DNA from: Abditibacteriaceae bacterium
Lineage (GTDB): Bacteria; Armatimonadota; Abditibacteriia; Abditibacteriales; Abditibacteriaceae
Reading direction: 5' to 3'
Assembly (NCBI GenBank): GCA_031372065.1
Contig: JANMKN010000043.1
Location: 9,084-73,083, forward strand
DNA length: 64,000 nt
The notes under the pieces were generated by a model. The model saw nothing but the letters and a program-made list of their open reading frames with translations. It did no database searches and was not told the origin of the DNA. Shown here one piece after another: positions 41,567 to 62,650 of this stretch (position 1 is its first letter; every line of letters begins with the position of its first letter). Both the position numbers and the translations under genes were made by a program.

Positions 41567-41606
41567 ATTAGCACTGGTGTTTGTGTAGTTTTCTGTGAGG
41601 TGTTTT

Positions 41607-46500: not shown

Positions 46501-48150
46501 TTACTCGCCCGGTGTGTCTTGTTGCGGATCGTGAGGGATGACGAAGATAAATTTGGAGCCTTTGCCGATTTCGCTTTCGGCCCAGATTTCGCCTTGATGA
46601 CGATCGACTAAATGCTTTACCAAAAACAGGCCAATGCCGGTGCCGCCTGCCATGCGGGTGTCTTGGTTATCCACGCGCTCGAACTTTTCAAAAACGCGGC
46701 TCAATTTGTTGGCCGGAATGCCGATGCCTTGATCGCTGATGCAAACTGTTAAATTCTTTTCGTCGCTGTTGAAATCCACCAGCACTTCGCCGCCATGCGG
46801 GGAGTATTTGATGGCATTGGAAACGAGATTGGTGATGATCTGATCGAATTTGTCGCAGTCGCCAGTGATAGGCGGAATGGTGCTGCGTGTTTTGAGTTTG
46901 AGATGATGCTTATCGCTGGCGTAGGAGCGTTGCACGCGCAGGGCTTTTTGAGCAATTTCCACCGGATCGAACGTGCTCCAGTTCATTTCCAGCGCGCGGC
47001 CCGATTCGATGCGCGAAACGTTTAATAAATCGTCAATCAGGCGGCGCAAACGGTCACATTCGCTATCAATAATCTCGTAGAACTCCAAACGGTCTTCGTT
47101 GGTGAAATAACCTTCGGTATCTTGCAAAAGCGTGGAGATAAAGCCCTTAATGGAAGTCAGCGGCGTGCGCAATTCGTGCGAAACGGTGGAGACGAACGCG
47201 GTTTTCATGCGCTCGACGTTGCGAATGGCCGTGATGTCGTTGAAAACCACGGCGACGCCCATTAATATATTGGAGCCGCCGTGTTGGGCGCGCACAAAGG
47301 CGGTTTGCGCTTGAAAAATGCGCGTTTCGCTGTCGTCGCCGATGCCCAATTGCACTTCGATTTCGCGATGCGTTTCGTGGCGTTGATCGAACACTTCGTC
47401 CAGCATTTCGCGCACTGTCGGGTTTTGAATGGCGTCGCGGAAATGTTTGCGCAGCGAATTTTCGCCCATGCCGAAAATCTGCGCCGCCGCCGGGTTCATC
47501 AGCGAAATCGTGCCGTCCGGGTCCAGCATGATAACGCCTGCCAAAAGGCTTTGCAGCGTGGCTTGCAACTGTTCTTTTTCTTCGGCAAGGCGCAAATACA
47601 TTTGCGCGTTGGTGATGGCGGCAGTCACTTGCCGCGCCATAGTGTTTAAAAGCAGTAAATCTTCGCTGGAAAAGTCTTCGCCCGCGCGTTTGTTGATAAT
47701 CAGCAGCACGCCCACTGTAACGTGCGCGATGACGCGTTCTTGTTCGTCGCGGCGCTCCATAACGAGCGGTTGCGCGATGAGATTGCGCACATTTAAGGGG
47801 CCAAGGCGCGCGCGATCCGCTTCGGAAAGGCTTTCAAATTGGGCCGCCGTTTCGATGACAACAGGAGCACTATGGTGATAAACCTCGCCGCCCAAACCGG
47901 CGTTGGACGACAAGCGGAGTTGGCGAATTTGGTCGGGCGTAAGGCCCAAAGAAGGCGCTCTGGCTACCAAGTCGCTGCTTTCGTGATCGTAAAGCAGAAA
48001 CGCACAGCGCTCGGCCTGAAGCATCATCGCCACGCGGCGCACAAGACGCTGGAGCGTTTGTTCCAACTCAGTGGCCGAAGGCATTTGCGGCGAGGCGCCG
48101 TTGCCTGCCTGACCGTTGGAATGAGAATGCGTAGCGGGAGTATCTTCCAT
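46501..48150 (-). CDS. GAF-PAS sensor histidine kinase
   Basis: VSHELRTPLTSIKG, NLVSNAIKYS, GGTGIGL. Confidence 0.93.
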   Translation of the reverse strand: MEDTPATHSHSNGQAGNGASPQMPSATELEQTLQRLVRRVAMMLQAERCAFLLYDHESSDLVARAPSLGLTPDQIRQLRLSSNAGLGGEVYHHSAPVVIETAAQFESLSEADRARLGPLNVRNLIAQPLVMERRDEQERVIAHVTVGVLLIINKRAGEDFSSEDLLLLNTMARQVTAAITNAQMYLRLAEEKEQLQATLQSLLAGVIMLDPDGTISLMNPAAAQIFGMGENSLRKHFRDAIQNPTVREMLDEVFDQRHETHREIEVQLGIGDDSETRIFQAQTAFVRAQHGGSNILMGVAVVFNDITAIRNVERMKTAFVSTVSHELRTPLTSIKGFISTLLQDTEGYFTNEDRLEFYEIIDSECDRLRRLIDDLLNVSRIESGRALEMNWSTFDPVEIAQKALRVQRSYASDKHHLKLKTRSTIPPITGDCDKFDQIITNLVSNAIKYSPHGGEVLVDFNSDEKNLTVCISDQGIGIPANKLSRVFEKFERVDNQDTRMAGGTGIGLFLVKHLVDRHQGEIWAESEIGKGSKFIFVIPHDPQQDTPGE

Positions 48151-48249
48151 CGAACTGTAAAAATTTGAGATATTGAAAAGGCGGAGCCACCCCGTTATTC
48201 AAAGAATCAACGTGGAATGGCCCCGCCCCAATGTGGGTCGGTAGCGCGA

Positions 48250-48744
48250 TTACCCAGTGTTGCCAGAATCTTCAGGACGCGCCTCGCTACCGGTGCCCTT
48301 ACGTTTTTCGTCTTTGCGCTTGTCTTCCTTGCGCTTGTCGTCCTTGCGTTCGGGTTTCAAATTCAGACGGGGCGCTTCGCTCGCGGGCGGTTTTTCGTCG
48401 CCTGCGGGCGGTGCGTGCTGGCGCAAAGCCGCCAAATCGTTGAGTTCCTTCAAATGCACTGAAAAATCAAGCAATTCCGCTTCGGAGATAGGCCCAGCTT
48501 CCGCCAGACGCTCACGCTCGTTGTCCGAAAGCTCATCGTGGTCTGGTTCCAATAATGTCCAGTCCCAACGCGCTTCGGGGACGAAAGTCTGCCCCATTCG
48601 CTTGCAGCGACGGCAGCGAAACTTGACGTAAACGTAATTTTGCCCCGGCGCCCGTTCGTATAAATCGGTGCGCATGATTTCTCTGGCTTGAATCCGATGC
48701 CCACAACAACGGCACTGCACTTCTTGTTTGCTCATACTGCCCAT
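48250..48744 (-). CDS. Zinc-ribbon hypothetical protein
   Basis: CRCCG...CRRC and a charged C-terminal tail. Confidence 0.7.
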   Translation of the reverse strand: MGSMSKQEVQCRCCGHRIQAREIMRTDLYERAPGQNYVYVKFRCRRCKRMGQTFVPEARWDWTLLEPDHDELSDNERERLAEAGPISEAELLDFSVHLKELNDLAALRQHAPPAGDEKPPASEAPRLNLKPERKDDKRKEDKRKDEKRKGTGSEARPEDSGNTG

Positions 48745-49068
48745 AAGGAGATGACCTCCGAACGACAGTATAGTAGGTGGCGAGTGGTGAGTGGTAGGAT
48801 GAAGCGAATGTGTTCAGGGCAATCGCAGAAGAAATACTTGTGACGAATCGGCACCCGTCGGGACGTAATTCACTCCATCCGTTGCTGCTGTGTCATCTGC
48901 GCCTGCCCGTTTGGAAGAGAGTCCGCACCTGCCCACAGATGGGCGCCCGGCGCCCGACTCCGCTAAATGACTTAGCGGCTCCGCCGAACCAGTGATTTTC
49001 CGGCGAATCTGTTGGGTTTGAGTTAGTTTTGGAGTGCGGCCATCGTCGTTTGATGTGTGACGCCAAAT

Positions 49069-51780
49069 CTACTGCAAGCGAACGACGAATGTTACGGTGC
49101 CGCTGGCGCTGGGCGCTAAAGTGCCCGCGAAAGTCCATTTCAGCGCGCCGAAGGCATTCACAGCGGGTGTGGTAGCGGTAATGCCGGTTAAATTGGCGGG
49201 CAGGGCGCTGTTGGTTTGCGAAACAAAGAGTGTGAAGGCAGGAGTGGTGTCGTTGATGACTAAATTGCTCAGTGGCGTGCCACTGCCGTTGCGATAAGTG
49301 ATGGTGTAGGAAATCAAATCGCCCGATTTGGCGGTGGCGCGATCCACGCTTTTGGAAAGCACAAGGCCGGTTTCGCCCGCCACAGTGGTTGTATCGGTGT
49401 GCGTAAGGGTGCTACTCAGTGCTGGAACCGCGTTGGTGTAGGTGAACTGCGCCGTGGTGGTAATCAGATCGCGGGCGCCAATGGGCGCGTTGGCGGGAAC
49501 GAACTCTTTAACAATAATGGCAACTTGTTGATTGGCGGTGACGGCAAGCGGCGCCGTGATAATCGGTTCGCCTGCATCCAAGACGCCGTTAGCGTTGCTG
49601 TCGAGATAAATCACGTTTTGCCAAAGGTTGTTGGCGGGCGTGGCGATATTCGTAGTAGAAAAAGTGACGCTTCCGGCACTTCCGGCAGTGAAAACGTGCG
49701 GATAAGTGACGGTGGCACCGGGCACGCCGTTTTGCGCGCCATCGTTAGTAAAGATATTGAGCGGCACATCGCCAAAATTGACGTTTGAATAAGTTGTGCC
49801 GACAGCGTTGGTGAAAGTCGTGGCGTCCGTGGCGCGATTATAAGTGCCGCCAGTATTGCCTACCGTGGCGCCCGTCGAAAGGTAATTGGCCGCGTTGGTT
49901 TCTTCGACGCGCAGAATTTGCGCGCCGATGGCAGCGCGAATATAAAGCGTATAATTACCAGCGCCGTCGGTGGTAGCCGTATCAAAAATGGTCGTATCCG
50001 CCGCGTTGGTTAAAGCCACCGTCACGCCGCTGACCCCTGCTTCGCCGCCGTCGCGGATGCCATTGTTAGCCGTGCCACCGCCCAGTCCATTGTCGTTAAA
50101 AACGCGCCCGCTCAATTTGCTGCCGTTAAACAAGCCAAAATTCTGGTTTATTACGTTAGTATTATCGGGCACTGTCACGTCAATGGCGCCTGTAGGCGCT
50201 TGCGTAGCGATGTAACCTGCCGGAATTGCCGGAGTAATATCGGTGAGCGTGTTGTTGTCGTCCAAAACAACGGTGTAGTTGCCGGTTGCCACGCCCAAAA
50301 TCTGATAACCGCCGGTGGTCGGATTAACCGCGACGGCTTGCGTGGCGACGGCGCTGTTTTGCGGCACCAGTTTCACAAAAAGAGTCGCCAAACCTGTTCC
50401 GGTTTCGTTGTTGCCCAGATTACCATTGTGATCGTCATCGGCGTAAACCACGCCTGAAATGGTGCTTTGCGGCGAGATATTAGTGGTTTTGGTAACAAAC
50501 AGCGTGGTAATGGTGCCCGGCGCGACTTTGGTATCCATCAGCGAAGTGCCGTTGATACGCGTGCTGTCGGTAGCGGCGGCTCCGGCGGTTGGTGTGACGC
50601 GCAAGATAAAATTCTTGGTTTGATTGGGCGTCAAAATGCCCGTATCCACTTTGCCGTCGCCATCGGTATCGGTCAGCGCCGCGCTACCGCTATCCAGCAG
50701 TTGCACTGTATAATTCGCCGCTGTGTTGGATGTCGTCAACTCAATGATGTCGTTGGTAAAAAACAGGTTGGTAACCGAAAAAGGATGATCTACCGGCACT
50801 CCGATAGTCGTGGAAAGCACATCATCGGGCGTAATACGGAAGTTGCCGGCGTCGCCAGTGACCGGATTTTGGTCAAGCAAAACCAACCGATTGCCAGCAT
50901 TGGCTTCGAGAATGAACTGGTTATTAGCCGAGATATTGTTGACATTGATTTGCCATACGCCCACATCTGGCAAGGTGCCTGTTGTGGTGTTGACTACGAT
51001 GGTGTCCTGCCCTGTATTAAGCGTCGGGGAGGGGCCGTTCCATAAAGCATTGCCTGACACCGTGCCAGCCACTGTAGTGCTGTTGGGACGGGTGTAAACC
51101 AAGGTGCCGGAACTGTCCATGTCGAAGTTTCGCAGGGTCAGATTCGGGTTGCCGGGGCCGACCAAAAAATAAAAAGTGTAGCTTTGCGGCGTTGCCGCGA
51201 AATGCACCAGCGTGCTTTGGTATTGACCAATCAGGGTGGATGTGCCGGGAATGGAAATGGTGTAAGAATTGTCGTCGTCGTTGAGCGTTGTTGTATTATC
51301 GCCATTAATCGGTGTGGCACCAGTGACGGTTACCACTTGATACGAACCCGCCGCGTTAATGTTGAAGGTGACAACGGTGCCATCGGGCGAACCCGAAGGC
51401 ACCGTTGTGGATTGCAAAACTGTGATGCCGTTTGGCGCTCGCAATTCAAAACGCGTTGGGTCGGGCGTGCCGGTTACTTCATCGCCGCCCGCACCATTCG
51501 ATTCGGCATCGCTGATGGTCACCGTCACGTTGCCGCCGTTGGCATCCAGCAAGGCTTGACTGACTTCGACGATAAAGCGATGAGTGCGGTCTGTGCTGCT
51601 ACTGGTGGCTGTTGTATACCAGTCGCCGATACCCGGCGGGCGCTGTTGGCCGCTGGTTTGAAAAGCGAGATTGGGCTGCGAAGGCAGCGTGCCCGCAAAG
51701 GCAAGCGATGAAGCGAAAAACAACGCGCCGCACAGGAAGCCTAAAAGCCAACCAAATTTTTGCATTTGCGCTGTTCTCAT
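49069..51780 (-). CDS. Secreted DUF11/SdrD-B protein, putative fimbrial tip adhesin
   Basis: Signal peptide, unique N-terminal domains, two SdrD-B-like repeats (SG.V..D...NG), truncated C-terminal DUF11; ATGA overlap with the upstream gene. Confidence 0.8.
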   Translation of the reverse strand: MRTAQMQKFGWLLGFLCGALFFASSLAFAGTLPSQPNLAFQTSGQQRPPGIGDWYTTATSSSTDRTHRFIVEVSQALLDANGGNVTVTISDAESNGAGGDEVTGTPDPTRFELRAPNGITVLQSTTVPSGSPDGTVVTFNINAAGSYQVVTVTGATPINGDNTTTLNDDDNSYTISIPGTSTLIGQYQSTLVHFAATPQSYTFYFLVGPGNPNLTLRNFDMDSSGTLVYTRPNSTTVAGTVSGNALWNGPSPTLNTGQDTIVVNTTTGTLPDVGVWQINVNNISANNQFILEANAGNRLVLLDQNPVTGDAGNFRITPDDVLSTTIGVPVDHPFSVTNLFFTNDIIELTTSNTAANYTVQLLDSGSAALTDTDGDGKVDTGILTPNQTKNFILRVTPTAGAAATDSTRINGTSLMDTKVAPGTITTLFVTKTTNISPQSTISGVVYADDDHNGNLGNNETGTGLATLFVKLVPQNSAVATQAVAVNPTTGGYQILGVATGNYTVVLDDNNTLTDITPAIPAGYIATQAPTGAIDVTVPDNTNVINQNFGLFNGSKLSGRVFNDNGLGGGTANNGIRDGGEAGVSGVTVALTNAADTTIFDTATTDGAGNYTLYIRAAIGAQILRVEETNAANYLSTGATVGNTGGTYNRATDATTFTNAVGTTYSNVNFGDVPLNIFTNDGAQNGVPGATVTYPHVFTAGSAGSVTFSTTNIATPANNLWQNVIYLDSNANGVLDAGEPIITAPLAVTANQQVAIIVKEFVPANAPIGARDLITTTAQFTYTNAVPALSSTLTHTDTTTVAGETGLVLSKSVDRATAKSGDLISYTITYRNGSGTPLSNLVINDTTPAFTLFVSQTNSALPANLTGITATTPAVNAFGALKWTFAGTLAPSASGTVTFVVRLQ

Positions 51781-54700
51781 TCGTTCACCAACTGATTCAA
51801 ACTGCCGGGACGATCTCCGCTAAGTGGATTGTCATTGCGCGCGACTGCCGGGGCCAAACCTGCATTAGCCACAGGCTTAAAGGTTTCGTCGTTTAAAGTC
51901 GCACCCGGCTTGCGGAAGCCGCTCCAGCCGTTCAAGGAATTTTCGTCGAACTTGAAACGAAGTCGCAAATAGGCGCCGCGTTGCGTCCATTCGTCGGCGG
52001 ACAAATCGTTGTCGTAGAAGCCGAAGAAATTGTAGCCAGCCGAAAGCATCATATCGCGCGTTAGCAGATAACCAAATTCCACTCCCATGCCTTGTTGACT
52101 GCCGCCGCCCCACAAACGGCTGCCGATTAAGCTCAATATCATGCGGCGATTTAAATCTTTGGTCAGGCGCGCCGACAGCAAATGCACCGAAGTGCGGCTC
52201 GATAAATCGGGCGTGGCTTCGTAGGCTTTTTTCCACGCGTAATGCAAGCGCATTTGCACGCTCGCTGAGGGCTGATAATTGCCGTCCAGCGACAAAATAT
52301 GCACGCGGCGTGTCAGGTTTTGCGCGAACGTCGGATTGCCGGACGTCGCGCCGAATTGCGACGGATTGTCGTCAAAGCGATATTCGTATTTCATCAGTGC
52401 ATTAAAGCGATCTGTATCGGTTTGGCGATACGCGAGGCCCATTTGCAAGCGGCCTTGCGTGCGGTCATTAAGCGCAGTGTCCGAATTAGTCTTGGTATAG
52501 GCTTCGCGCGCCAAAAGCGTTAAATTGCGGCCCGGTTTCCACGCAATGCCCGCTGTGGACAGAAAGTTATCGCCGCCGCTGGCTTTGCGGCCTTCCAAGC
52601 GGCCTGTGGCGCGAAAAGTTTCGCCACGCAAAAATTCAAGGCCGATGCCTGCTGCCGTCCCATCGTCCAACAAAACACCGCCGGGGCCGTTTAAGGTTTG
52701 CACGCGCTCAAAATTGGTGCTGAGTTTGAGGCCCGGCGCGAGATTCCACAAATTGCGTAGGCCCAGCGCGGCCTGTGCGCTACGGCCATCAATGCCGTTG
52801 CCCAAGCGATATTCACCGAAAAGCGAGCCATTTTTCATGTAATCGCTTTCGATGCCAAAACGCGTGTTATATTGGCGCTGCGATTCATTAAGCGCGTAAA
52901 GTCCGCCGAACGAATCGAGAAATTCATGCGCCACATAAAGGCGACTGCGATTGGCAATTTGATATTCGCCACCGATTTGAAAACTTTGTTTGCTATCACT
53001 CAAAGAACGTTCGTAGCGCGTAAACGCTGTAATTTTGGGATGATTTGGCATTTGCGCGGCTAAACGGGCAAAAGCCGTGGTGAAATTCACGTTGCCAAGG
53101 CCAAGTTGCGGCGTGTTTGAAGCGCCGCCTTCGCTGGAAGCGTGACGAACGCCAGTTTGCAAGCGCAAACTCTTGCCCAGCGCTGTGTCCATCGCCAACT
53201 GCGCGCCGGTGAGGGTGCCGCCGTTGAGGGCATCGCCAGTGCGCATCACTTCGCCATTCAAGCGCGTTTTGGTGTTCAACTTATAAGAAGCGCGCGCCGA
53301 AATTTCGCGGCGGCCATTGCTCAAAATGGATTCGGGATTGTCAAAAGCCGCGTCGCTGCGGCCCACAAACAAACGCGCTTGCATCCGTTCGCTGTTGTGC
53401 AAGAGTTCCAATTTTTTCGCGTCGCCCTTGCCCAAATTGGTATCCGTGCGCGCCCATTCGCCGAACAAAACGGTTTGCTGATTGAAGCGATAAACCGCGT
53501 TTAGCGATTGCAAGGTTGTCGGGTCTTGCGGGTTGGCATCTTTTGTCCATGCCGCGCCAACTTGAAAATTGTTGCCGATTTTATACTGGCCGTTCAATCC
53601 CCAAACGTTGAAATTCGGGCCGCCTTGGTCAACTTCGTAAGTAATGCGGATGAAAACCGGATTGCCATCGGGGTCAATTGAAGGAACCGGACGACGAAAC
53701 AAAATGCCTTCGGTCAGGCCGTCAATGGAATAATCAGTGAAGCGTTCTTGGGCCGTGGTGCGCAAAATAAGGCCCGGCTGATTGCGGTCGCGCACGATGA
53801 TTTCCACTTTTTCGCTGCCATCAATGGCGCCGGTTGTCAGCAAGCGATACGGGCCGGAAATGCCGCGTCCGGGAATTTCGTCAATCACGCGGCGATTATT
53901 ATCGCGGGCGAAAAAGAAATTGGTCGAATATTTTTGCTTTTCGCCGTGCAATTGCACGCCGTTGAGCGAGCGCGAATAACGGCTGAGGCTGTCACTGGTT
54001 TCGGCGCCCGAAGTCAGAAAGTCGCCGTATAAAACGTAGCTTTGATTTTTGTCCACGCGCACATAAAGGCGGCTGGTAGATTGTGCGTCGAAGCCTTTAA
54101 TCGAAGAATCGCCGTAAACCGGATAATATTCGTCCGGCTGAATATCGCGGAAGAGGCGCTCGCCGCTTTCCAGTTCCGAATCGTAGCGCATCGTCAGCAG
54201 ATATTTGCCTTGCACGCTGCCTTTGAGAAACATCGCGCTGCGGCCTTCCAAGCGCGTCGAATTGCTTTGCGAAATTTTACGTAAATCGTCTTCAAACAAG
54301 TCGGATGTGTTGATGGGGCGCGCGCCGGACGGACGGAAGCGGAACAAATTTAATTTGGCATCCAGCACGCCGGTGGCCGTAAGCGGGCGCAGTTCCGGCA
54401 CGAAGCTGATTTCGCCGGTTGAAGCCATCAATCCGCTGGAAACGCGAATCAGGCATTGGCCCGGCTCGGAGGGCGACACGAGGAGAAATTCGCCCCGCCC
54501 ACCTTCGATAAATAATTGCACGCCCGGCTCGACTTCGTTGAGGTCGCGCTGCAACCACTCGCCCCGGCTGGATTCAAGCGTAATCGGCGTGCGCGCCGTA
54601 ACGAAAACGCCGCGCTTGTCCACCAATTCGACACGAATTTTAATCGGCGTCAGGCCATCGGCGGGCAAAGTTTTGTCGGGCAAAAACAAGCGCAAGAGGC

Positions 54701-57700
54701 CCAAATCGCCGGGCGCCGTAACGCTGATTTTCACGCGCCCTTTTTCGTTGCCAAAGCTATCCAATTGCACGGCTTCGAGCGTGTTGGCGCCCGCTTCGAG
54801 GCCAACGCCAATATATTCCCACGCTTGCAACTGCTTGGCGGCCAAAGTGCTGCGTGTGCCGACGCGCGTATCGGCGAGTTCCTGCCCGTTGACAAACAAT
54901 TTGAAACTGGCGCCCGCCATGCCCTTCACACGCACATTGGTTTGGCGCTGGGCCAGCGTGTCGCCGTCTTTGAGGTCAATAAAGCCGAGTTCGTTGGTGA
55001 CGGTGGGCAAAATTTCTTCGAGCGGCACCGATGAGGGCAACGTCGCGGGCGACGGGGCAATCGGCAGGCCGATTTGACTGTCCAGCGGCTTGGAAAGCAC
55101 ATTGACATCGTTTAAACCGGCGGGAATATTCGGCGTGATATTAGTTGTTTGCAAATTGCCGCCGGTTTCCGAGTCGCGCATTCCCGGCGCGCCATTGTTG
55201 GCGACAATCGGGTTTTTCAAGCGCGTGTTGAACGAACCGCTGCCCGGATTGCCGCTGGGCGTGTAAGCAGAATTCTGGCTCGTATTGGTGGGGAAACTGC
55301 CCGGCGCGCTGCCCGCCGAAACGGTGCCGCTGGCCGGCAAAGCGCGCGGGTCGGAGGGCGTGATTTGCTGCCCGTCCGGGTTCAAATTGGCGCGCACGCC
55401 GCCGTCAATTTCCGAAATCTGTTTGGCTAAAGCGCGGCGTTTTTCCACTTGATCTAAAATCTGTGGCGTGGCGGCGATGTCGGCGAAGTTGACTTTTTGC
55501 ATTTCGCCGTTTTTCAGGTCGGCAAAAGCCGAATCGCCGCGCCGTCCGTGGTTCGTCGTCAGCGGCTCCAATTGCACACCGGCGGGCAAAGTTTGCGCGT
55601 CCACTTTGACCGTATGCGTCGTAGCGCGCACGCCGTAAAGGGAATATTTGCCTTCTTGATCTGTTACCGAAAACGTGCCGTCTTCAAGCCAGATGCGCAC
55701 GCCGGGAATGCCGTCTTCGCCTTTGTCCTGCACGCGGTTGCGGTTTTTGTCCACAAACACTTTGCCGAAAATAATACCGCGCGTGGTGAAGACGCCGCCG
55801 ATAATTTTGACGGGCGCCGAGGCCACATTCGACTGCACTGTGCCAAAAACCGTGGCGCCGTTGGCCTGTGCGCGGTTGATATTTTCGCCCGTGGCCGCGC
55901 CGGGGCCGATTTTGGTGCGATACGAAATAATCGTTTCGGCGCCAATGGCGAAATTGCCCAAATTAAAGGTCAAACGCGGGCCGCGTCCACCCGACGGATC
56001 GGCGATGGCATTGCCGTCGCGCCGCGCGCTTTTTAATTGATATTCAAAACCACGCGGCAGCAAATCTTCGAGCGTGACATTGGTGAGTGCAAAACCTGTG
56101 GTGTTGCGCACGCGCACTTGATAATCCACCCAATCGGCGATTTCGGCTTGCCTTTTGGACGCGATTTTTTCGAGAAACAAACCCGCAGGCGGCGGGCCAT
56201 CAAGCGGCACATCAAGCGTGACGGTGCCGGTTTGAATCGTCACTTGAAACGGGCCACCATAGGAGCCGGAAATATCAATAACGCGTCCCGGCGGCAGCGA
56301 ACCGGGCGGCACTTGTGAAGGAAAAGTGAAGCCCGCTGGCGGCTCAATAACCAGACGATAGGTGCCCGGAATAATTTGCGGGAATTGAAACGCACCATCG
56401 GGGCCGGTGATAACAGTGGCTGATACAACCGTGACGCCATCGAAATCCAAAACGCGGGCTGGGCCTCCGGCATTGCCGCCGTTGCTGACGCCATTGACAT
56501 CAATTAAAGTGACGCGCGCGCCTTGAACCGGCAAATTGGTGCGCGAATCGAAAACCACGCCCAGTGGGTCAATCAAGATAATGGCGACGGCATCGGCTTG
56601 TCCGGCGCAATCGCTCAGGCGCGCAGTGAGCGAATCGTCAGCGCGGATGGACAAACTGTTATCTGCCGGGTCAGCCGCGCCATTATTGGTTGGCACCGAA
56701 GGCAAAACGCGAAAAATGCCGGTGTTCGGGCCGGTTTCGGTGGCAAGGCGCGCGATGGAATCGCCAGTGAGCAGTGAGCGAATCGTGATGGTAATTTGCT
56801 CAATGCGCGTCGGGTCTTGGTTGCACGAAGCGGCGGTGCCTTGCACGAAAAGCGGGCGTCCTAAGCCGGTTACTGTAGTGGGGCGCGCGAAATTATCGTC
56901 TGTATAATACGAAATCGTTGGCGGCACACGCGGCAGTGTCACTTGAACGGGGTTGGACGGCGTTTCGAGGCGCTGATTGGTAAATGACTCGGCGCCAAAT
57001 AAAACCGCCGTGTTGCTGATAATGCCGCTGGCGTTGGCATTGGCGCGCACGCGCAGCGTCAGGCGCACTTCGCCACGCGGCGGATAGATGACTAATCCGG
57101 CAGCGATGGCATCCACGCTGCCAAGCGGCGGCGGTGTAGTGACATAGGTGTGCAGCGGATCGCCAATGCGATGATAAAGTTTGATGGCCGTGCCGGGAAC
57201 GGCGAAATCAATCAGCGTGGTGTTGGCCGGAATGACATCGCGCAAAACCACAAGCGCGCGGTTTTGGCCGTCAACAATCGTTGGAATGCCAACCGGCTCA
57301 ATGGCGCCGAGGCTTTGCGACAACACGCTGAAAACTATTTCTTCGCCGGGCGCTGAATTCAACTTTTGCACGGCTTTGCTTACGCGCAGCGACACGCCGG
57401 GCACGGTTTGAATGGTATCGGTGTTAAATTCGCGGGCGCCTTGCGTCAGGCTGATGGCCGTAATGCGCACTTGCGCCGATTGTCCAACGGGCGCGGTAGG
57501 TGGGACAGTGCCAACAACGAGCAAATCAACGAATTCGTTGGGCGCTAAAGCAATACGGTCATTGGCGCTGAGTTCGGTTTCGCCCGGATCAAGCTGTCCG
57601 TTGCTGTTAGCATCGCGCAAAACGCGCAAGTCCGTCAAATCGTAGCCATCGCCCGCGAGATTTGCCACGATAACCGAATAATTCGTGGGCGTGTTGCCGG

Positions 57701-57974
57701 TATTGGTCAGGCGATGAGGCAAAGTCACTGAGGCGCCCGGCGGCACTGTTACATTTTGGTCACTGGTAAGAAGCAGGGCTTCTTGCGGCAGAATGGAAAT
57801 TTGAACTTCGTTGGAATCAATGGAAAAAAATTCTTCGCCGCTTTGATAAGTCGCTGTGGCTTTGTTGTTTACGAAACTGCCCGCCTGCGGCACTTGAGCG
57901 CGCACCACGCCACTGGCGAAAAAGCTCAATAGTAGGGCAGTCAGCAAGAAAAAGCGAGTCACGCGGGTGCGCAT
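51777..57974 (-). CDS. DUF11/SdrD-B protein with large C-terminal outer-membrane beta-barrel, putative anchor/usher-like
   Basis: Signal peptide, two complete DUF11 domains, IFGKVFVDKNRN SdrD-B module, long amphipathic beta region ending GAYLRLRFKFDE. Confidence 0.8.
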   Translation of the reverse strand: MRTRVTRFFLLTALLLSFFASGVVRAQVPQAGSFVNNKATATYQSGEEFFSIDSNEVQISILPQEALLLTSDQNVTVPPGASVTLPHRLTNTGNTPTNYSVIVANLAGDGYDLTDLRVLRDANSNGQLDPGETELSANDRIALAPNEFVDLLVVGTVPPTAPVGQSAQVRITAISLTQGAREFNTDTIQTVPGVSLRVSKAVQKLNSAPGEEIVFSVLSQSLGAIEPVGIPTIVDGQNRALVVLRDVIPANTTLIDFAVPGTAIKLYHRIGDPLHTYVTTPPPLGSVDAIAAGLVIYPPRGEVRLTLRVRANANASGIISNTAVLFGAESFTNQRLETPSNPVQVTLPRVPPTISYYTDDNFARPTTVTGLGRPLFVQGTAASCNQDPTRIEQITITIRSLLTGDSIARLATETGPNTGIFRVLPSVPTNNGAADPADNSLSIRADDSLTARLSDCAGQADAVAIILIDPLGVVFDSRTNLPVQGARVTLIDVNGVSNGGNAGGPARVLDFDGVTVVSATVITGPDGAFQFPQIIPGTYRLVIEPPAGFTFPSQVPPGSLPPGRVIDISGSYGGPFQVTIQTGTVTLDVPLDGPPPAGLFLEKIASKRQAEIADWVDYQVRVRNTTGFALTNVTLEDLLPRGFEYQLKSARRDGNAIADPSGGRGPRLTFNLGNFAIGAETIISYRTKIGPGAATGENINRAQANGATVFGTVQSNVASAPVKIIGGVFTTRGIIFGKVFVDKNRNRVQDKGEDGIPGVRIWLEDGTFSVTDQEGKYSLYGVRATTHTVKVDAQTLPAGVQLEPLTTNHGRRGDSAFADLKNGEMQKVNFADIAATPQILDQVEKRRALAKQISEIDGGVRANLNPDGQQITPSDPRALPASGTVSAGSAPGSFPTNTSQNSAYTPSGNPGSGSFNTRLKNPIVANNGAPGMRDSETGGNLQTTNITPNIPAGLNDVNVLSKPLDSQIGLPIAPSPATLPSSVPLEEILPTVTNELGFIDLKDGDTLAQRQTNVRVKGMAGASFKLFVNGQELADTRVGTRSTLAAKQLQAWEYIGVGLEAGANTLEAVQLDSFGNEKGRVKISVTAPGDLGLLRLFLPDKTLPADGLTPIKIRVELVDKRGVFVTARTPITLESSRGEWLQRDLNEVEPGVQLFIEGGRGEFLLVSPSEPGQCLIRVSSGLMASTGEISFVPELRPLTATGVLDAKLNLFRFRPSGARPINTSDLFEDDLRKISQSNSTRLEGRSAMFLKGSVQGKYLLTMRYDSELESGERLFRDIQPDEYYPVYGDSSIKGFDAQSTSRLYVRVDKNQSYVLYGDFLTSGAETSDSLSRYSRSLNGVQLHGEKQKYSTNFFFARDNNRRVIDEIPGRGISGPYRLLTTGAIDGSEKVEIIVRDRNQPGLILRTTAQERFTDYSIDGLTEGILFRRPVPSIDPDGNPVFIRITYEVDQGGPNFNVWGLNGQYKIGNNFQVGAAWTKDANPQDPTTLQSLNAVYRFNQQTVLFGEWARTDTNLGKGDAKKLELLHNSERMQARLFVGRSDAAFDNPESILSNGRREISARASYKLNTKTRLNGEVMRTGDALNGGTLTGAQLAMDTALGKSLRLQTGVRHASSEGGASNTPQLGLGNVNFTTAFARLAAQMPNHPKITAFTRYERSLSDSKQSFQIGGEYQIANRSRLYVAHEFLDSFGGLYALNESQRQYNTRFGIESDYMKNGSLFGEYRLGNGIDGRSAQAALGLRNLWNLAPGLKLSTNFERVQTLNGPGGVLLDDGTAAGIGLEFLRGETFRATGRLEGRKASGGDNFLSTAGIAWKPGRNLTLLAREAYTKTNSDTALNDRTQGRLQMGLAYRQTDTDRFNALMKYEYRFDDNPSQFGATSGNPTFAQNLTRRVHILSLDGNYQPSASVQMRLHYAWKKAYEATPDLSSRTSVHLLSARLTKDLNRRMILSLIGSRLWGGGSQQGMGVEFGYLLTRDMMLSAGYNFFGFYDNDLSADEWTQRGAYLRLRFKFDENSLNGWSGFRKPGATLNDETFKPVANAGLAPAVARNDNPLSGDRPGSLNQLVNE

Positions 57975-58021
57975 TATGTGTTTTGTTCTTACTAAAAAGT
58001 AAATTTTGAAATTTAGGGTTA

Positions 58022-58057
58022 AGGGAGCGAGGCAAATTTGATTTTGCCTCGCTCCCT
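58022..58057 (-). terminator. Strong intercistronic hairpin after the putative major pilin
   Basis: agggagcgaggcaaa-tttgat-tttgcctcgctccct perfect 15-bp stem. Confidence 0.75.
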
Positions 58058-58082
58058 TGTGCTAACGGAAGAAACCGAAGTT

Positions 58083-60656
58083 TTAGCCGTTGATCGTCAC
58101 GCCAAAGGTAATCACAGCCGATTGGCCGGGATTGAGCGTGCCGATGTTGAATCGCAATGAGCCAGCGGCGTTATTAGCGGGCGTCGCACCATTGGCGCCT
58201 GTCGCAGCCGTAAAAGCTCCACCATTGACCGAGAAGCCGCCAACGCCTGTGATGGTATTGGTGCCGTCGCCGATGTTATAGGTGGTGAAAGTCGGTGTGG
58301 CGTCATTGACAACCACGTTGGTCACTGGCGCGCTACCCGTATTGGTTACCACAATGCGATAACGCACAATGCTGCCGGGCAGGGCGGTTTGGCGGGCCTG
58401 CGTGAACGGGCCGCCATTGACCGATTGGAATTTGTCCACTTTCAGGTCACCCGAAACCACGGTGGTGGTGTCAGTGGCCGTATCGGTGGAAACGCCATCT
58501 GTGCCAGTGATGGTCGTCACGTTGACCGAACCATCGGAAGCGCCCGCCGGAGCGAAGACGCGCACGAAGATGGGAATGCTGACGCCGGGTGCCAGCGAGG
58601 GAATCGTAGTCAGTGGGATCGCGGCTTCGGCGGGATCAAGGATGCCGTTGTTGTTGGTGTCCTGATAAATCACGCTGGTGAAGCCGGGCTGCGTGTTGAT
58701 TCCGGTCAGCGCCACATTGGTCAACGTGGTGTTACCCGTGTTGGTGACTGTGTGCTGATAGGTAATCGCGCTGCCTTGGAAGACCTGGCCGGTGTTATTC
58801 GGTTCAACGCTGATGCCATTGACCGGATTGACCGTTACGCGATCATGAATAATGTCGGCGGAACCCGTCGTTGGCGAAATGGAACGGAAGAACAGTTCCA
58901 CGTTGCCCGGCGAAGCGTTGGCCGGAATCGTGATGCGCGCCGTGAGGTTAGCCGAAGCGCCGGGCGCCAAAGTGCCGGTATTGGTGACAACTGCGCCAGT
59001 GGAATCCACGAAGACAACCGTGAAGCCAGCAGGTAGGCCAACCGGTGGTGAGAAGACAGCCGTGTTCGACACTTGCAAATTGTAGTTGTCGGGCACAGGG
59101 CCGGTATTGACGACCACGACAGGAATCGTCACCGTCGCGCCGGGGTTGCCAGTGACTGTTGTCACGGGAGCCGCTTCAGGGCCAGCCCCTGTTCCTGCAC
59201 CAGCCGCATTCCGAATGTCCACGCTGGCCGCAGTAATAGCGGTTAAGGTGTCCGTTGCCGGATCGCTCACTGACGGATTATTGGTTGACGTGGCGATCTT
59301 GTTAATACTGAAGGGGCCGCCAGTCGCTGGGCCGGGTAGTGTCACTTGTAACACTACATTGTAAGTGCCGCCAGCCAAAACGGGGCCGGTATCGGGGATG
59401 CCGTTGCCGTTTGAGTCAAGTAGCGGTGTTACGCCATCGCTTTGATACAACTTGTAAGATGAGCCAGCCGGGAAGGTCGAAGCCGCCGTATTCAGCGTGA
59501 TGTCGAAGGTGTCGGTGCCGTTGCCCGTGTTGGTCAACAAGTTGGAGAATGTTACCACGCCGCCTTGCGGGACGGTCGCCACTGTTTGTCCATCGAAGGT
59601 TACGCCTGCATTCTGGGTGATGGTGAAAATCACCGTGTTCGACGTGCCGTTTTTGTTCGGTGTGGCACCGTTGTTATCGTCGTCGTAGCTAAAGTTCGCC
59701 GTGTTAGGAATTGTGCTGGGCGGAACGTTGGCGTTCACGTTCACTTGGAACGTGACGCGTCCTGTGGCACCAGCGGGAACTGTGGCAACGACGGCTGTAA
59801 CAGTGCCAGCCGCGAAGCTGTAATTGATGCCTGCTGGGTCGCCGCCTGCCGGATCAGTCAGTGGCGTGGCGCCCGAAGCGCTCCAACGTCCCGAACCGGC
59901 CACATAAGTCATACCGGTGGGCACTATGTCGGTCAATTGCAACGCTGTCGCTGCTTGGTTGCCGGTGTTGGTATAGGTCAAGGTATAAGTGCGTGGGCCG
60001 CTGGGCGAAGCGCCTTGCCCCACGTCAATGCTCTTGACCACATTGATAACCGCGTTGACCGAAACCGTAACGGTATCCGTATTGGTGACAGTCACCGTAT
60101 TATCAAAACCGCTGGTCGCTCTTACCAGAACGTTGGCCGTTTGGCCTGCTGTGGCCGTCGGCGGCACAACACCAGCGACAACGAACTTAAAGTTGGCGCC
60201 AGCAGCCAATGGGCCGGTTGAGGTAATCGGCGTGTTATTGTCTGGCACACCATTGCCATCGGCGTCGGCATACATAACCGGCACGATGTCGAAGTTGTCT
60301 CCGCCCTGATCAACCACAGTCAGCCCGATGGTGTCGGTGCCGTTGCCATTGTTGACAACCGTGTGCGGAAAGTAAATCGGGCTACCGGGAGCCGCGATTT
60401 TGGAGTTGTTCGCCGTTAAACTGATAGCGGCGACTTGCTGCACTGTCGTTTGCACAGTGTTCGATGTGGCAGTGCGCGTGACATTGGAGCCATCCGTATA
60501 GGTGGCGGTGGCTTGGTTTCCAATAACAGAGTTAGCCGGTGGCGGCGTCTGAGCGCGGACTGCGCCGCTAAATGCACACAAAAAAACCGCTACAGCGAAG
60601 ATCGTCAGTAACGGCTTGAATTGTTGCAGGATGCGGCAAAAATTGCTTTGCGTCAT
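58083..60656 (-). CDS. Secreted DUF11 repeat protein, putative major fimbrial subunit
   Basis: AAAGGAG RBS, signal peptide, T/N/G-rich Ig-like repeats, one complete and one truncated DUF11 domain. Confidence 0.85.
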   Translation of the reverse strand: MTQSNFCRILQQFKPLLTIFAVAVFLCAFSGAVRAQTPPPANSVIGNQATATYTDGSNVTRTATSNTVQTTVQQVAAISLTANNSKIAAPGSPIYFPHTVVNNGNGTDTIGLTVVDQGGDNFDIVPVMYADADGNGVPDNNTPITSTGPLAAGANFKFVVAGVVPPTATAGQTANVLVRATSGFDNTVTVTNTDTVTVSVNAVINVVKSIDVGQGASPSGPRTYTLTYTNTGNQAATALQLTDIVPTGMTYVAGSGRWSASGATPLTDPAGGDPAGINYSFAAGTVTAVVATVPAGATGRVTFQVNVNANVPPSTIPNTANFSYDDDNNGATPNKNGTSNTVIFTITQNAGVTFDGQTVATVPQGGVVTFSNLLTNTGNGTDTFDITLNTAASTFPAGSSYKLYQSDGVTPLLDSNGNGIPDTGPVLAGGTYNVVLQVTLPGPATGGPFSINKIATSTNNPSVSDPATDTLTAITAASVDIRNAAGAGTGAGPEAAPVTTVTGNPGATVTIPVVVVNTGPVPDNYNLQVSNTAVFSPPVGLPAGFTVVFVDSTGAVVTNTGTLAPGASANLTARITIPANASPGNVELFFRSISPTTGSADIIHDRVTVNPVNGISVEPNNTGQVFQGSAITYQHTVTNTGNTTLTNVALTGINTQPGFTSVIYQDTNNNGILDPAEAAIPLTTIPSLAPGVSIPIFVRVFAPAGASDGSVNVTTITGTDGVSTDTATDTTTVVSGDLKVDKFQSVNGGPFTQARQTALPGSIVRYRIVVTNTGSAPVTNVVVNDATPTFTTYNIGDGTNTITGVGGFSVNGGAFTAATGANGATPANNAAGSLRFNIGTLNPGQSAVITFGVTING

Positions 60657-60824
60657 GTTCACTCTCCTTTGAGTGGGGGAAATGGCACTGCGAAACTACA
60701 AAAACGAAACGTCAAAATTACTGTCTTACGACGGGATTGGGCGAAGGTTTTCGTGGTCAAATCTGCTTACGCAACCTCGCTTCACAAACCGCTGCTGTCG
60801 CAGAGCGATAAAAGAGGCGAAGTT

Positions 60825-61397
60825 TTAGCGGCCCGCCTCCTTTCCCACCGTGACTGTCTCGGCGGACTTGGACGCAGATTTAACAGGCCCCAAAACGCGG
60901 ACGCGGGCGAAGACCGTGACTTTTTTGCCAGCGGCCAGTTCGCTTATGCTCCAACGCAGGGCGCGGTATTGGCTAAGAGGAATTAGTTCGACTTTGGTGC
61001 TGCCGTCAGCGCTTTTGCTAACGCGCTTAAGAGGCAGCGAAGCGAAGGTTTTGCCGTCGGTGCTAGCTTGCGCATCATCCGGCAGAGCGCTGCCCGACAC
61101 GAATTCCATGCCACCGGGAATCGGCAGCGTGGCGGCTAAATTTTTCACGCTTTGCGTGCCATTGTTGGCATAGCGCGCCTGATATTCGATGGTTTCGCCC
61201 GGCTTGATTTTATCGGCGGCTGCCAATTCGTCTTTTTCGCCTTTGGCGACGATTTTATAAGCCGTCAATTGCACATCAACCGGCCCTTTGCCCGCTTGTG
61301 CCCACAGAACACTGGTGCAACCAATTCCTGCCAAAAATCCAATAGCACACGTCAAAGTGCGGCCTCGTGCAAGAAATGGCTTGTTGAGATTTTTCAT
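60825..61397 (-). CDS. Small secreted single DUF11-like protein, putative chaperone
   Basis: AAGGAG RBS, signal peptide, PGETIEY...N.G....NL....PIP.GM.FV.GSA...LRW.I..L.AG. Confidence 0.8.
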   Translation of the reverse strand: MKNLNKPFLARGRTLTCAIGFLAGIGCTSVLWAQAGKGPVDVQLTAYKIVAKGEKDELAAADKIKPGETIEYQARYANNGTQSVKNLAATLPIPGGMEFVSGSALPDDAQASTDGKTFASLPLKRVSKSADGSTKVELIPLSQYRALRWSISELAAGKKVTVFARVRVLGPVKSASKSAETVTVGKEAGR

Positions 61398-61478
61398 GAA
61401 ACTCCTTTTGTCTTTTTGCCCTGTGACACCAGCATTGCCTCATAATTTGCGAGGTAGTAGGTGCAAACAACTTTTCCC

Positions 61479-61484
61479 ATTATA
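61479..61484 (-). promoter_or_regulatory. Candidate sigma70 -10 box of the DUF11 operon
   Basis: Perfect TATAAT on the minus strand about 80 nt upstream of the first gene, in an AT-rich divergent region. Confidence 0.45.
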
Positions 61485-61771
61485 ACCTGAATACCGGTTT
61501 TTGAAACAATATCTCTTCGAGTATTTTTGGCCAATTATAGATTTTTTTGCAATTGCAAATTGCAATGAAATATCAATATATTGTGCTGTGAAAAGAATTG
61601 AAGGCCGTATGTTGTGGTTTTTGCATAGATGTTTTAGTATGATAAAACTGGATTTCAGTGGTGAAGCGAGAAAGCGCGGTTAAAATTAACGCATTCTTCA
61701 CATCACCGTAATCGAATTCGAGCAAAATAAAGTGTCGGTAGGATTTGCAGAAGATGCAGGAGAAACCCGTC

Positions 61772-62650
61772 ATGTCACAAACAATGGCCCAAAACGCCCG
61801 TCAGAACAACCACTCAAACAGATTGCACCGAGCTTTTACGCTCATTGAACTCTTGGTCGTCATAGCGATAATAGCGCTCCTCGCGGCCATTCTGTTTCCC
61901 GTTTTCGCCCGTGCTCGTGAAAATGCGCGCAAATCAAGTTGTCTGAACAATTTGAAGCAGATTGGCCTTGGCTTTCAGCAGTATTCACAAGACTATGATG
62001 GCATGACGCCCGGTTCCAGTAGCACTGGTGGTAATGCCTCGTGGCCGAGTTTGTTGATGCCTTACGTTAAAAGCGAGCAAATTTTCGCGTGTCCTTCGGG
62101 CACAACCTCTCCTGCCATTCGCAGCGATGTGATGCCCGCTTCAACGCGTGCTTATTGTGGCACTACTTCCAATGGCGATGGTTCAGCAACGGCGGAGAGG
62201 AAGTTGAATTTGGGCCTGTCTTATGGCGTTAATGCCATCACGGTGACCGCAACGTCTAACTTCACTACACCGGGTTTCACAGGGACAACAAGCGCACCGG
62301 GCGCAAATGGGCCAAAGTGCGGTTATGTAACGCCCGGCAACACGACTACTGTTGGTTTAGCGGACAGTGACGTTGAAGACCCGGCGGGCACAATCCGCGC
62401 TTTCGATTCGATGGCCGGCAGTGTTGGTGCCACAGATTGCAATCACGGCAATTCAATTCGCGCCATCAGTGCCGAAGATCGAACGGATCGCACTTTAACA
62501 GATACGGCTTCCAAAGTAGCACGGCGCCATTTTGAGGGTTTTAATGCCATGTATGGCGACGGACACGTTAAATATTACGTTAAGTGGGGCACAACCAAGG
62601 CTTCCGACTGGACAATTCAGCGCGATAATCCCGACGGCACACCGAAATAA
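61772..62650 (+). CDS. DUF1559 prepilin-type protein with H-X9-DG domain
   Basis: [37 protein letters not shown] and [16 protein letters not shown]. Confidence 0.92.

Follow-up and report, generated by a model that had tools for sequence, protein, structure and literature searches.

How might a secreted protein be used if its last domain breaks off before the final strands and its mature N-terminus resembles just those strands? This question is raised by p859, a gene in a stretch of 64,000 nucleotides from an Abditibacteriaceae bacterium (assembly GCA_031372065.1, contig JANMKN010000043.1), the whole of which is called the window below. p859 is the second of four co-directional genes on the minus strand, in the order p190, p859, p2065 and p903, and each of the four proteins has a signal-peptide-like start. 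DUF11, a domain recently renamed CLIPPER, is found in all of them, and SdrD_B is found in p2065 and p903 (Pfam). An earlier note on this DNA, whose feature ended at position 60656, the ATG at residue 3 of p859, took the protein for a putative shaft pilin with a natural split isopeptide pair. With a probability of roughly 0.65, p859 serves as the shaft subunit of a surface fibre. The N-terminal hairpin (the donor) of each subunit would complete the truncated C-terminal domain (the acceptor) of the subunit before it, and a spontaneous isopeptide bond between Lys744 and Asn49, catalysed by Asp787, would likely lock the joint.

A CLIPPER domain divided between the two ends of p859

The whole p859 protein scores 53.6 bits against Pfam DUF11 (PF01345; cut-off, 24.6 bits), with separate scores of 31.9 bits for the C-terminal domain and 30.7 bits for an internal domain, D2. 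The two matches differ in extent. That of the internal domain (residues 205-352) covers profile positions 5-104 of 114, whereas that of the C-terminal domain is confined to positions 10-84 of 114 and leaves off 2 residues short of the stop codon, in agreement with the earlier note, in which this domain was said to stop before its Asn strand. Where the remainder of the domain might be found is suggested by profile-profile comparisons (hhalign) on sub-alignments of A1, an alignment of 70 homologues of p859. The N-terminal piece (residues 38-80) is aligned with columns 115-150 of the 150 columns of the complete internal domain (probability, 91.4%; E, 9.2e-7), residues 46-78 being placed on residues 317-352, while its E values against the five other domains are 0.086-0.7. 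The likeness that the same note saw between the mature N-terminus and the final strand pair of the complete DUF11 domain within p859 is thereby borne out. The C-terminal piece is aligned with columns 16-109 of the same 150 (probability, 97.2%; E, 3.9e-11). Because the donor and acceptor matches cover complementary columns, the two ends of p859 tile one domain. When the open frames of the genome are searched with an HMM of the complete domain, the N-terminus is again found at HMM positions 110-150 and the C-terminus at positions 16-111. The donor peptides alone, which are too short, have no Pfam match.

The AlphaFold2 model of p859 (mean pLDDT, 89.6; pTM, 0.54) places five Ig-like domains between the two ends, about as many as had been expected, and only about 5 residues between the N-terminal hairpin and the first of these domains, D1. 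The predicted strand segments of the N-terminus (residues 46-49, 52-56, 62-66 and 70-74) form the same run as those at the end of the complete domain (residues 316-320, 322-327, 337-340 and 344-348). The donor is a hairpin of about 33-40 residues and not a short tag. It is preceded by a hydrophobic helix of low pLDDT (residues 16-30), directly after which conservation in the alignment starts. At the other end, the C-terminus (...ITFGVTING) has no LPXTG motif, hydrophobic stretch or charged tail such as make up the sorting signal of a sortase pilus.

By sequence, the terminal domain is a split variant of the CLIPPER/DUF11 family. The Lys-Asp-Asn triad stands within one chain in D2, where K210, D245 and N320 are each found in 70 of the 70 homologues; the terminal domain has K744 and D787 without the Asn strand, and the corresponding Asn, N49, is found 695 residues upstream at the N-terminus. 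These three residues are also invariant (N49, K744 and D787, each 70/70). The Lys in the LKVDK motif and the Asp had already been singled out in the earlier note. Since the first Lys of the motif, K741, occurs in just 16 of the 70 homologues and the second, K744, in all of them, K744 is the candidate bond partner.

D2 (residues 201-349) is similar in fold to PDB entry 9IFR (Z, 13.4; rmsd, 2.2 Å; 121 residues aligned out of a chain of 123; VIA-align), a structure reached by fold comparison only; the terminal split domain is related to D2 by profile only. The available part of the report on 9IFR describes a solved isopeptide bond of the Lys-Asp-Asn type (K715, D748 and N806) within one chain (PMC12617251). 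CnaA-type domains of Gram-positive pilins also resemble D2 in fold, as in the case of BcpA (Z, 14.9). Comparison with PDB sequences gave no match to the whole of p859 at E up to 0.01, and only chance-level antibody matches to the internal domain alone (E, 0.18-0.37). A Foldseek search with the whole p859 model was uninformative, with matches to generic multi-Ig proteins (chains of the axoneme central apparatus, titin and complement).

The split architecture is widely conserved. Of 8,000 candidates scored in a word-index search, 3,059 proteins reach E up to 1e-5, and the best 120 homologues are all 839-896 aa long with query coverage of 94-100%. The N-terminal donor and the complete internal domain are found in 120 of these 120, and the terminal match is truncated in 108, counts that are partly circular in that the HMMs were built from 70 of the same 120. 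In A1 the donor is the best-conserved segment of the protein, with a mean column identity of 0.75 as against 0.56-0.65 in the other domains. A51, D57, S67 and N68 in the donor are each present in 70/70, and the C-terminus falls 1-3 residues past the last strand in 67/70. Among 1.84 billion cluster representatives (50% identity), a search by profile finds 23,709 matches at E up to 0.001, 10,048 at 1e-10 and 2,377 at 1e-30. Among 144 further listed cluster representatives, 123 have both the N-terminal donor and the terminal acceptor; the others comprise 11 with the acceptor only (several being N-terminal fragments), 3 with the donor only, 5 with neither and 2 fusions.

Partner halves in the operon and in other genomes

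If the halves of p859 serve to join chains, matching halves might be expected in other proteins. Among the 18,058 open frames of at least 100 aa in the 6.1-Mb assembly, the donor HMM has just two matches, p859 (E, 3.4e-20) and, at its N-terminus, p2065 (E, 0.0031); those of the acceptor HMMs are confined to the four operon proteins. p2065 begins right after its signal peptide with SFVNNKATATY...SNEVQ, in which Asn37 takes the bond position. The C-terminal domain of p903 matches DUF11 profile positions 2-83 of 114, with the match ending at the end of the protein; this acceptor is aligned with columns 4-108 of the 150 columns of the complete domain (E, 2.5e-13) and with the p859 acceptor (E, 1.2e-22; both hhalign). 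The donor HMM has no match in p903, and no Pfam family is found in its N-terminal 440 aa. The operon therefore holds two donors (p859 and p2065), two acceptors of the reactive type (p859 and p903) and one acceptor-like domain lacking Lys and Asp (p190). The p190 family profile covers columns 7-130 of the 130 columns of the p859 acceptor (probability, 97.4%; E, 9.4e-12; hhalign), and p190 ends soon after the same strand as that acceptor does. Its homologues have no conserved Lys, and ATLPIP stands at the place of the Asp motif. The only chaperone-like match of p190, NCBIfam SteC (E, 0.056), scores 12.8 bits where the cut-off is 417. As a tentative idea, which we hold to be somewhat short of an even bet, p190 might bind donor hairpins reversibly as a chaperone or a cap.

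The C-terminal region of p2065 is predicted to be a giant outer-membrane barrel. Residues 990-2065 were modelled by AlphaFold2 from 19 orthologous pieces (mean pLDDT, 76.6; pTM, 0.61). In this model Ig-like domains are followed by a beta-rich region, in which 32 consecutive strands of 10-19 residues (model residues 450-1020, corresponding to p2065 residues 1439-2009) are preceded by about 10 more, and the last 49 residues are disordered. The matches of the model in Foldseek include the large outer-membrane barrels LptD, SlpA, MtrB and SprA and the TonB-dependent receptors, with low TM-scores of 0.15-0.22. In the language-model Atlas, the region falls among 'outer membrane protein' clusters without a common Pfam family, and a Pfam match to Porin_4 is weak (E, 1.9e-4, below the cut-off). 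Pfam gives no match to the autotransporter barrel PF03797, and the model shows at least 32 long strands over about 800 residues, not 12. The usher family PF00577 has no match in p2065 at E up to 0.1, and no PapD-like chaperone or usher family was detected in the operon proteins (Pfam and NCBIfam for both). The features of the four genes are collected in Table 1.

Table 1. Positions in the window of the four operon genes and of the features assigned to their products
Feature	Position	Strand	Basis or remark
p190, secreted single acceptor-like (truncated CLIPPER/DUF11-like) domain without Lys and Asp	60825-61397	minus	DUF11 E 4.3e-6
p859 open reading frame	58083-60662	minus	859 aa, GTG start
p859 signal peptide, residues 1-37, predicted cleavage VRA/Q	60552-60662	minus	cleavage site inferred
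p859 donor half, mature N-terminal two-strand hairpin, residues 38-77	60432-60551	minus	hhalign and conservation
p859 donor, codon of invariant Asn49	60516-60518	minus	
p859 D1, Ig-like, residues 78-204	60051-60431	minus	AlphaFold2 strands, block pLDDT about 87-97
p859 D2, complete CLIPPER (DUF11) domain, triad K210/D245/N320 in one chain	59607-60050	minus	
p859 D3-D5, Ig-like, residues 353-735	58458-59606	minus	AlphaFold2; Pfam NPCBM_assoc and DUF7507 matches
p859 acceptor half, C-terminal CLIPPER without the last two strands, residues 736-859	58086-58457	minus	
p859 acceptor, Lys744 codon	58431-58433	minus	
p859 acceptor, Asp787 codon	58302-58304	minus	
p2065, donor-only partner with giant C-terminal beta-rich region	51777-57974	minus	donor HMM, AlphaFold2
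p2065 donor hairpin with Asn37	57780-57896	minus	
p2065 beta region	about 51948-54374	minus	
p903, acceptor-only partner	49069-51780	minus	start overlaps p2065 stop codon
p903 acceptor domain, Lys810 and Asp844	49072-49368	minus	

It might be supposed that p859 is an ordinary fibrillar adhesin, of which the terminal pieces are decayed remnants without any role in pairing, and that p2065 is just a neighbouring transporter or porin. DUF11 repeat proteins are common as adhesin stalks according to the accessible part of PMC12617251, and homologues of p859 are annotated only as 'repeat protein' or 'trimeric autotransporter adhesin'. However, decay does not explain why the best-conserved segment of the protein is among these pieces, why 123 of 144 distant cluster representatives share one break point, or why halves that match turn up in three other operon proteins. 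We regard this explanation as highly improbable.

A similar set of genes is found in other bacteria. A scan with one genome per species gave 23 loci, 22 of them bacterial, which come from Opitutae, Eisenbacteria, Terriglobia, Alpha-, Beta- and Gammaproteobacteria, Balneola, a deltaproteobacterial metagenome-assembled genome and others, and which include the cultured carriers Thiothrix caldifontis DSM 21228 and Montanilutibacter psychrotolerans ZS60. In 19 of the 22 bacterial loci a p190-like ORF stands ahead of the p859-like gene, first in the cluster, and a p2065-like ORF adjoins in 21/22. Every one of the 21 p2065-like proteins has an N-terminal donor match (E up to 5e-4 in 19 of them, weak in the other 2), in which the bond position is Asn in 18, Ser in two (L004:3704-9613 and L019:11485-17382) and Ala in one (L008:12423-17861). 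As to the 12 p903-like proteins, two are cut by the end of the locus, and the ten complete ones all stop after the same strand and show the Asp; the Lys is visible in nine of the ten, and in the tenth the Lys strand is upstream of the stretch examined. Four loci (L012, L017, L020 and L021) have two p859-like paralogues, in tandem or flanking the barrel gene, and such pairs may be major and minor subunits. In L020 there is no p190-like or p2065-like ORF within the stretch covered.

Tandem fusions and a possible mode of assembly

The order in which the halves are joined is indicated by natural fusions. P0124 (3865 aa) and P0125 (2023 aa) contain tandem p859-like units in one chain, where an acceptor is followed 3-5 residues later by a donor and no signal peptide is found between the fused units. 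In P0124 the acceptors at residues 721-845, 1584-1704, 2413-2533 and 2841-2954 are followed by the donors at residues 848-887, 1707-1747, 2537-2575 and 2959-2992, respectively, and in P0125 the acceptor at residues 776-901 is followed by the donor at residues 905-939. The complete-domain HMM spans the junctions; for example, residues 755-886 of P0124 correspond to HMM positions 11-150. The Pfam matches of the junction pieces also cross the junctions, at scores below the cut-offs (P0124, DUF11 with 22.3 bits against 24.6; P0125, DUF7927 with 20.3 bits against 31). As read from the sequences, the junction domains have Lys and Asn at 5/5 and Asp at 4/5, with Glu at the fifth. In these fusions the hairpin that would complete an acceptor is the head of the next unit, which supports head-to-tail pairing by the 'Rosetta stone' logic of gene fusions. 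Such an arrangement agrees with the head-to-tail polymer of the earlier note and argues against closure within one unit. At their C-termini, P0124 and P0125 have additional Ig-like repeats as well as two short repeats rich in Asp and Asn (GDLNCDGIVNIDD...), which look similar to dockerin repeats. If so, the fused forms would be anchored quite differently from the barrel-rooted split forms.

The split-domain interpretation of the earlier note has thus received strong comparative support from the triad, the operon partners, the conserved architecture and the tandem fusions, while binding of the halves, the Lys744-Asn49 bond and homopolymerisation are what we infer from these sequences. The assembly might proceed as follows. 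All four proteins would be exported by Sec. p903 would form the distal tip, of which the variable N-terminal 440 residues could bind a target, and its acceptor would take the donor of a p859 subunit. One or many further p859 subunits would be added likewise, each inserting its donor into the preceding acceptor. Finally the donor of p2065 would plug the last acceptor, by which the fibre would be ended and also rooted at the predicted outer-membrane barrel; this barrel may double as the export pore. At each joint of p859 subunits, Lys744 would attack Asn49 with Asp787 as the catalyst, in the manner of the bond within the chain of 9IFR. p190 might meanwhile hold free donor hairpins reversibly in the periplasm.

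Several points weigh against this scheme. The barrel is deduced from a strand pattern and from Foldseek matches with the low TM-scores given above, and the export route would have to operate without a detected usher or chaperone family. A p903-like ORF is found in 12 of the 22 bacterial loci, several of which end before p903 could appear. The system is unevenly distributed among relatives: at E up to 1e-20, this query has matches in 8 of 18 further genomes from the family and in none of 12 from the rest of the phylum. Taken with its occurrence in many phyla, such a pattern suggests an accessory, transferable operon. The base joint may not necessarily be covalent in all lineages, given the three Asn-less p2065-like donors. 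The N-terminal hairpin has pLDDT above 90 in the monomer model, and AlphaFold2 may have docked it in cis. A single p859 that bridges the tip and the base fits the gene content equally well. The last three of these points bear on other explanations, which are considered in turn.

A hairpin docked in cis would suit a closed ring, in which the hairpin completes the C-terminal domain of its own chain as in a circularly permuted CLIPPER and p859 acts as a monomeric adhesin, both halves being indeed in one chain. The acceptor-only p903 and the donor-only p2065, however, both need a partner in trans, and in the natural fusions it is the next unit, not the acceptor's own, that supplies the completing hairpin. 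The five Ig-like domains between the ends and the linker of about 5 residues from the hairpin to D1 also stand against such a ring, which is quite improbable.

The gene content, which comprises a tip-like, a dual and a base-like protein, would satisfy a 1:1:1 chain, in which one p859 links the p903 tip to the p2065 base in a stalk, instead of a shaft of many copies. Joints in chaperone-usher pili are ordered and specific, which can be counted for such a stalk, and the two p859 paralogues in the four loci named above hint at ordered adaptors. Yet the p859 and p903 acceptors are close relatives, as their E value indicates, the p859 and p2065 donors match the same HMM, and nothing seen prevents p859 from accepting its own donor. 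The fused proteins, moreover, carry up to four or five like units serially. A 1:1:1 stalk is unlikely on balance.

The joints might also be formed by donor-strand pairing without a covalent lock, the Lys, Asp and Asn being conserved for packing only. This would accommodate the Ser or Ala in 3 of the 21 p2065-like donors as well as p190, an acceptor-like domain without Lys or Asp. BsaA oligomers, as far as the available text of PMC11580942 goes, are SDS-stable even without their bond. On the other hand, K744, D787 and N49 are invariant in the 70 homologues while the neighbouring K741 is not, the same triad in a homologous complete domain forms the solved isopeptide bond of 9IFR (PMC12617251, in its available part), and the fused junctions keep Lys and Asn throughout, with Asp replaced by Glu at one of the five. 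Pairing of this unlocked kind has a low probability in our estimate, and a lock is retained as the likely part of the head-to-tail fibre.

Genomic surroundings and relation to known fibres

Directly downstream of the operon, the minus strand at 46501-48744 contains an ORF of 164 aa, which has two CxxC pairs and a tail rich in Lys, Asp and Glu and matches no Pfam family, and a gene for a histidine kinase of the GAF-PAS-HisKA-HATPase type; these two may regulate the fibre operon. On the plus strand at 61745-62650, divergent from the operon, a DUF1559 protein with a prepilin-type N-terminal methylation motif is encoded. DUF1559 prepilin-like genes are typical of Planctomycetota and Verrucomicrobiota. 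Farther away on the plus strand, the region 39980-46499 holds an ORF of 528 aa without a Pfam match and, after it, the gene for a bacterial alpha-2-macroglobulin of 1634 aa (MG2, A2M bait region, TED and bMG10). A scan of positions 48000-62000 for promoters and terminators gave nothing usable, the site counts being near the shuffled expectation. Four metagenome runs from freshwater sediment, all belonging to one study, contain the DNA of the window, which may itself derive from one of them; no RNA run is listed as matching it.

Among known domains, the CLIPPER domain of fibrillar adhesins (9IFR) is the closest in kind, sharing the fold, the family and the Lys-Asp-Asn triad with D2 of p859. In the available part of PMC12617251, CLIPPER is described with intramolecular bonds only. 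The bond of 9IFR lies inside one domain of one chain, whereas the terminal copy in p859 is cut after the strand preceding the Asn strand, the Asn hairpin heads p859 and another protein, and the bond would join two chains.

The layout of the operon is analogous in sequence to that of chaperone-usher pili, as the fusions support. Fim and Pap pili (type 1 and P) have an acceptor-only tip and an outer-membrane barrel protein, to which p903 and the predicted barrel of p2065 would correspond. In the chaperone-usher scheme, as presented in the accessible part of PMC11821415, an incomplete Ig-like fold is made whole by an extension at the N-terminus of the next subunit. The word 'DUF11' that turns up in the same text is the beginning of DUF1102 and is not CLIPPER. 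The p859 system differs in that two strands in a hairpin make up the donor instead of one, each subunit contains seven domains and would likely be locked covalently, the donor-only base protein and the predicted barrel are one chain, and neither PF00577 nor a PapD-like family is detected.

An isopeptide bond between subunits is described for BsaA fibres of Clostridium perfringens (TasA family), in which, according to the available text of PMC11580942, an N-terminal donor Asn inserts into the next subunit and an N35-K74 bond is formed with E56 as a catalyst. p859 would share with BsaA an N-terminal Asn donor entering the next subunit and a spontaneous Asn-Lys bond with an acidic catalyst, which would be Asp in p859 and is Glu in BsaA. 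BsaA, however, is a single domain of the unrelated TasA-like fold, from a Gram-positive host with SipW signal peptidase and no outer-membrane component. No TasA/camelysin-like family is found by Pfam in the four operon proteins, the domains found all being Ig-like, of the DUF11, DUF7507, SdrD_B or NPCBM_assoc type. Thread filaments of Sulfolobus acidocaldarius combine donor-strand complementation with isopeptide bonds between subunits, as reported in the part of PMC9715654 at hand. They differ from the p859 system in being archaeal, with another subunit family and no outer membrane. SpyTag/SpyCatcher, SnoopTag/SnoopCatcher and isopeptag/pilin-C are engineered split pairs. In an engineered pair of this kind, described in the available part of PMC6539128, an isopeptide domain has been divided into a catcher and a tag that carries a strand, and the two react spontaneously. 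Engineered pairs are cut from naturally whole domains, mostly of the CnaB fold, whereas the split in p859 is natural, the fold is CnaA-like, and the donor is a hairpin of the length given above. A full-text literature search, with subscription journals and supplements outside its coverage, gave no paper on a split DUF11/CLIPPER fibre.

With slightly more confidence than doubt, we propose that these proteins represent a new and widespread class of pili of double-membraned bacteria, which would have no sortase, usher-family protein or PapD-like chaperone and would consist of self-welded split-CLIPPER subunits rooted in a barrel, the halves forming a natural Tag/Catcher pair. If this is true, a very common gene set encodes a previously undescribed type of surface fibre. 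The p859 family comprises 2,377 of the 50%-identity clusters at the strictest threshold used (E up to 1e-30), and it occurs in Verrucomicrobia-like, acidobacterial, proteobacterial, Bacteroidota-like and candidate-phylum genomes. To our knowledge, spontaneous isopeptide bonds between subunits have been known so far in a Gram-positive TasA-family fibre, archaeal threads and phage capsids; such bonds would then be extended to diderm bacteria and to a CnaA-like fold. It would also raise the question of how folded subunits of seven domains cross the outer membrane. For study of the system, the cultured carriers named above would be on hand. The use of the donor and acceptor halves as a natural Tag/Catcher pair is a reasonable prospect, and thousands of homologues would provide naturally co-evolved pairs with orthogonal variants.

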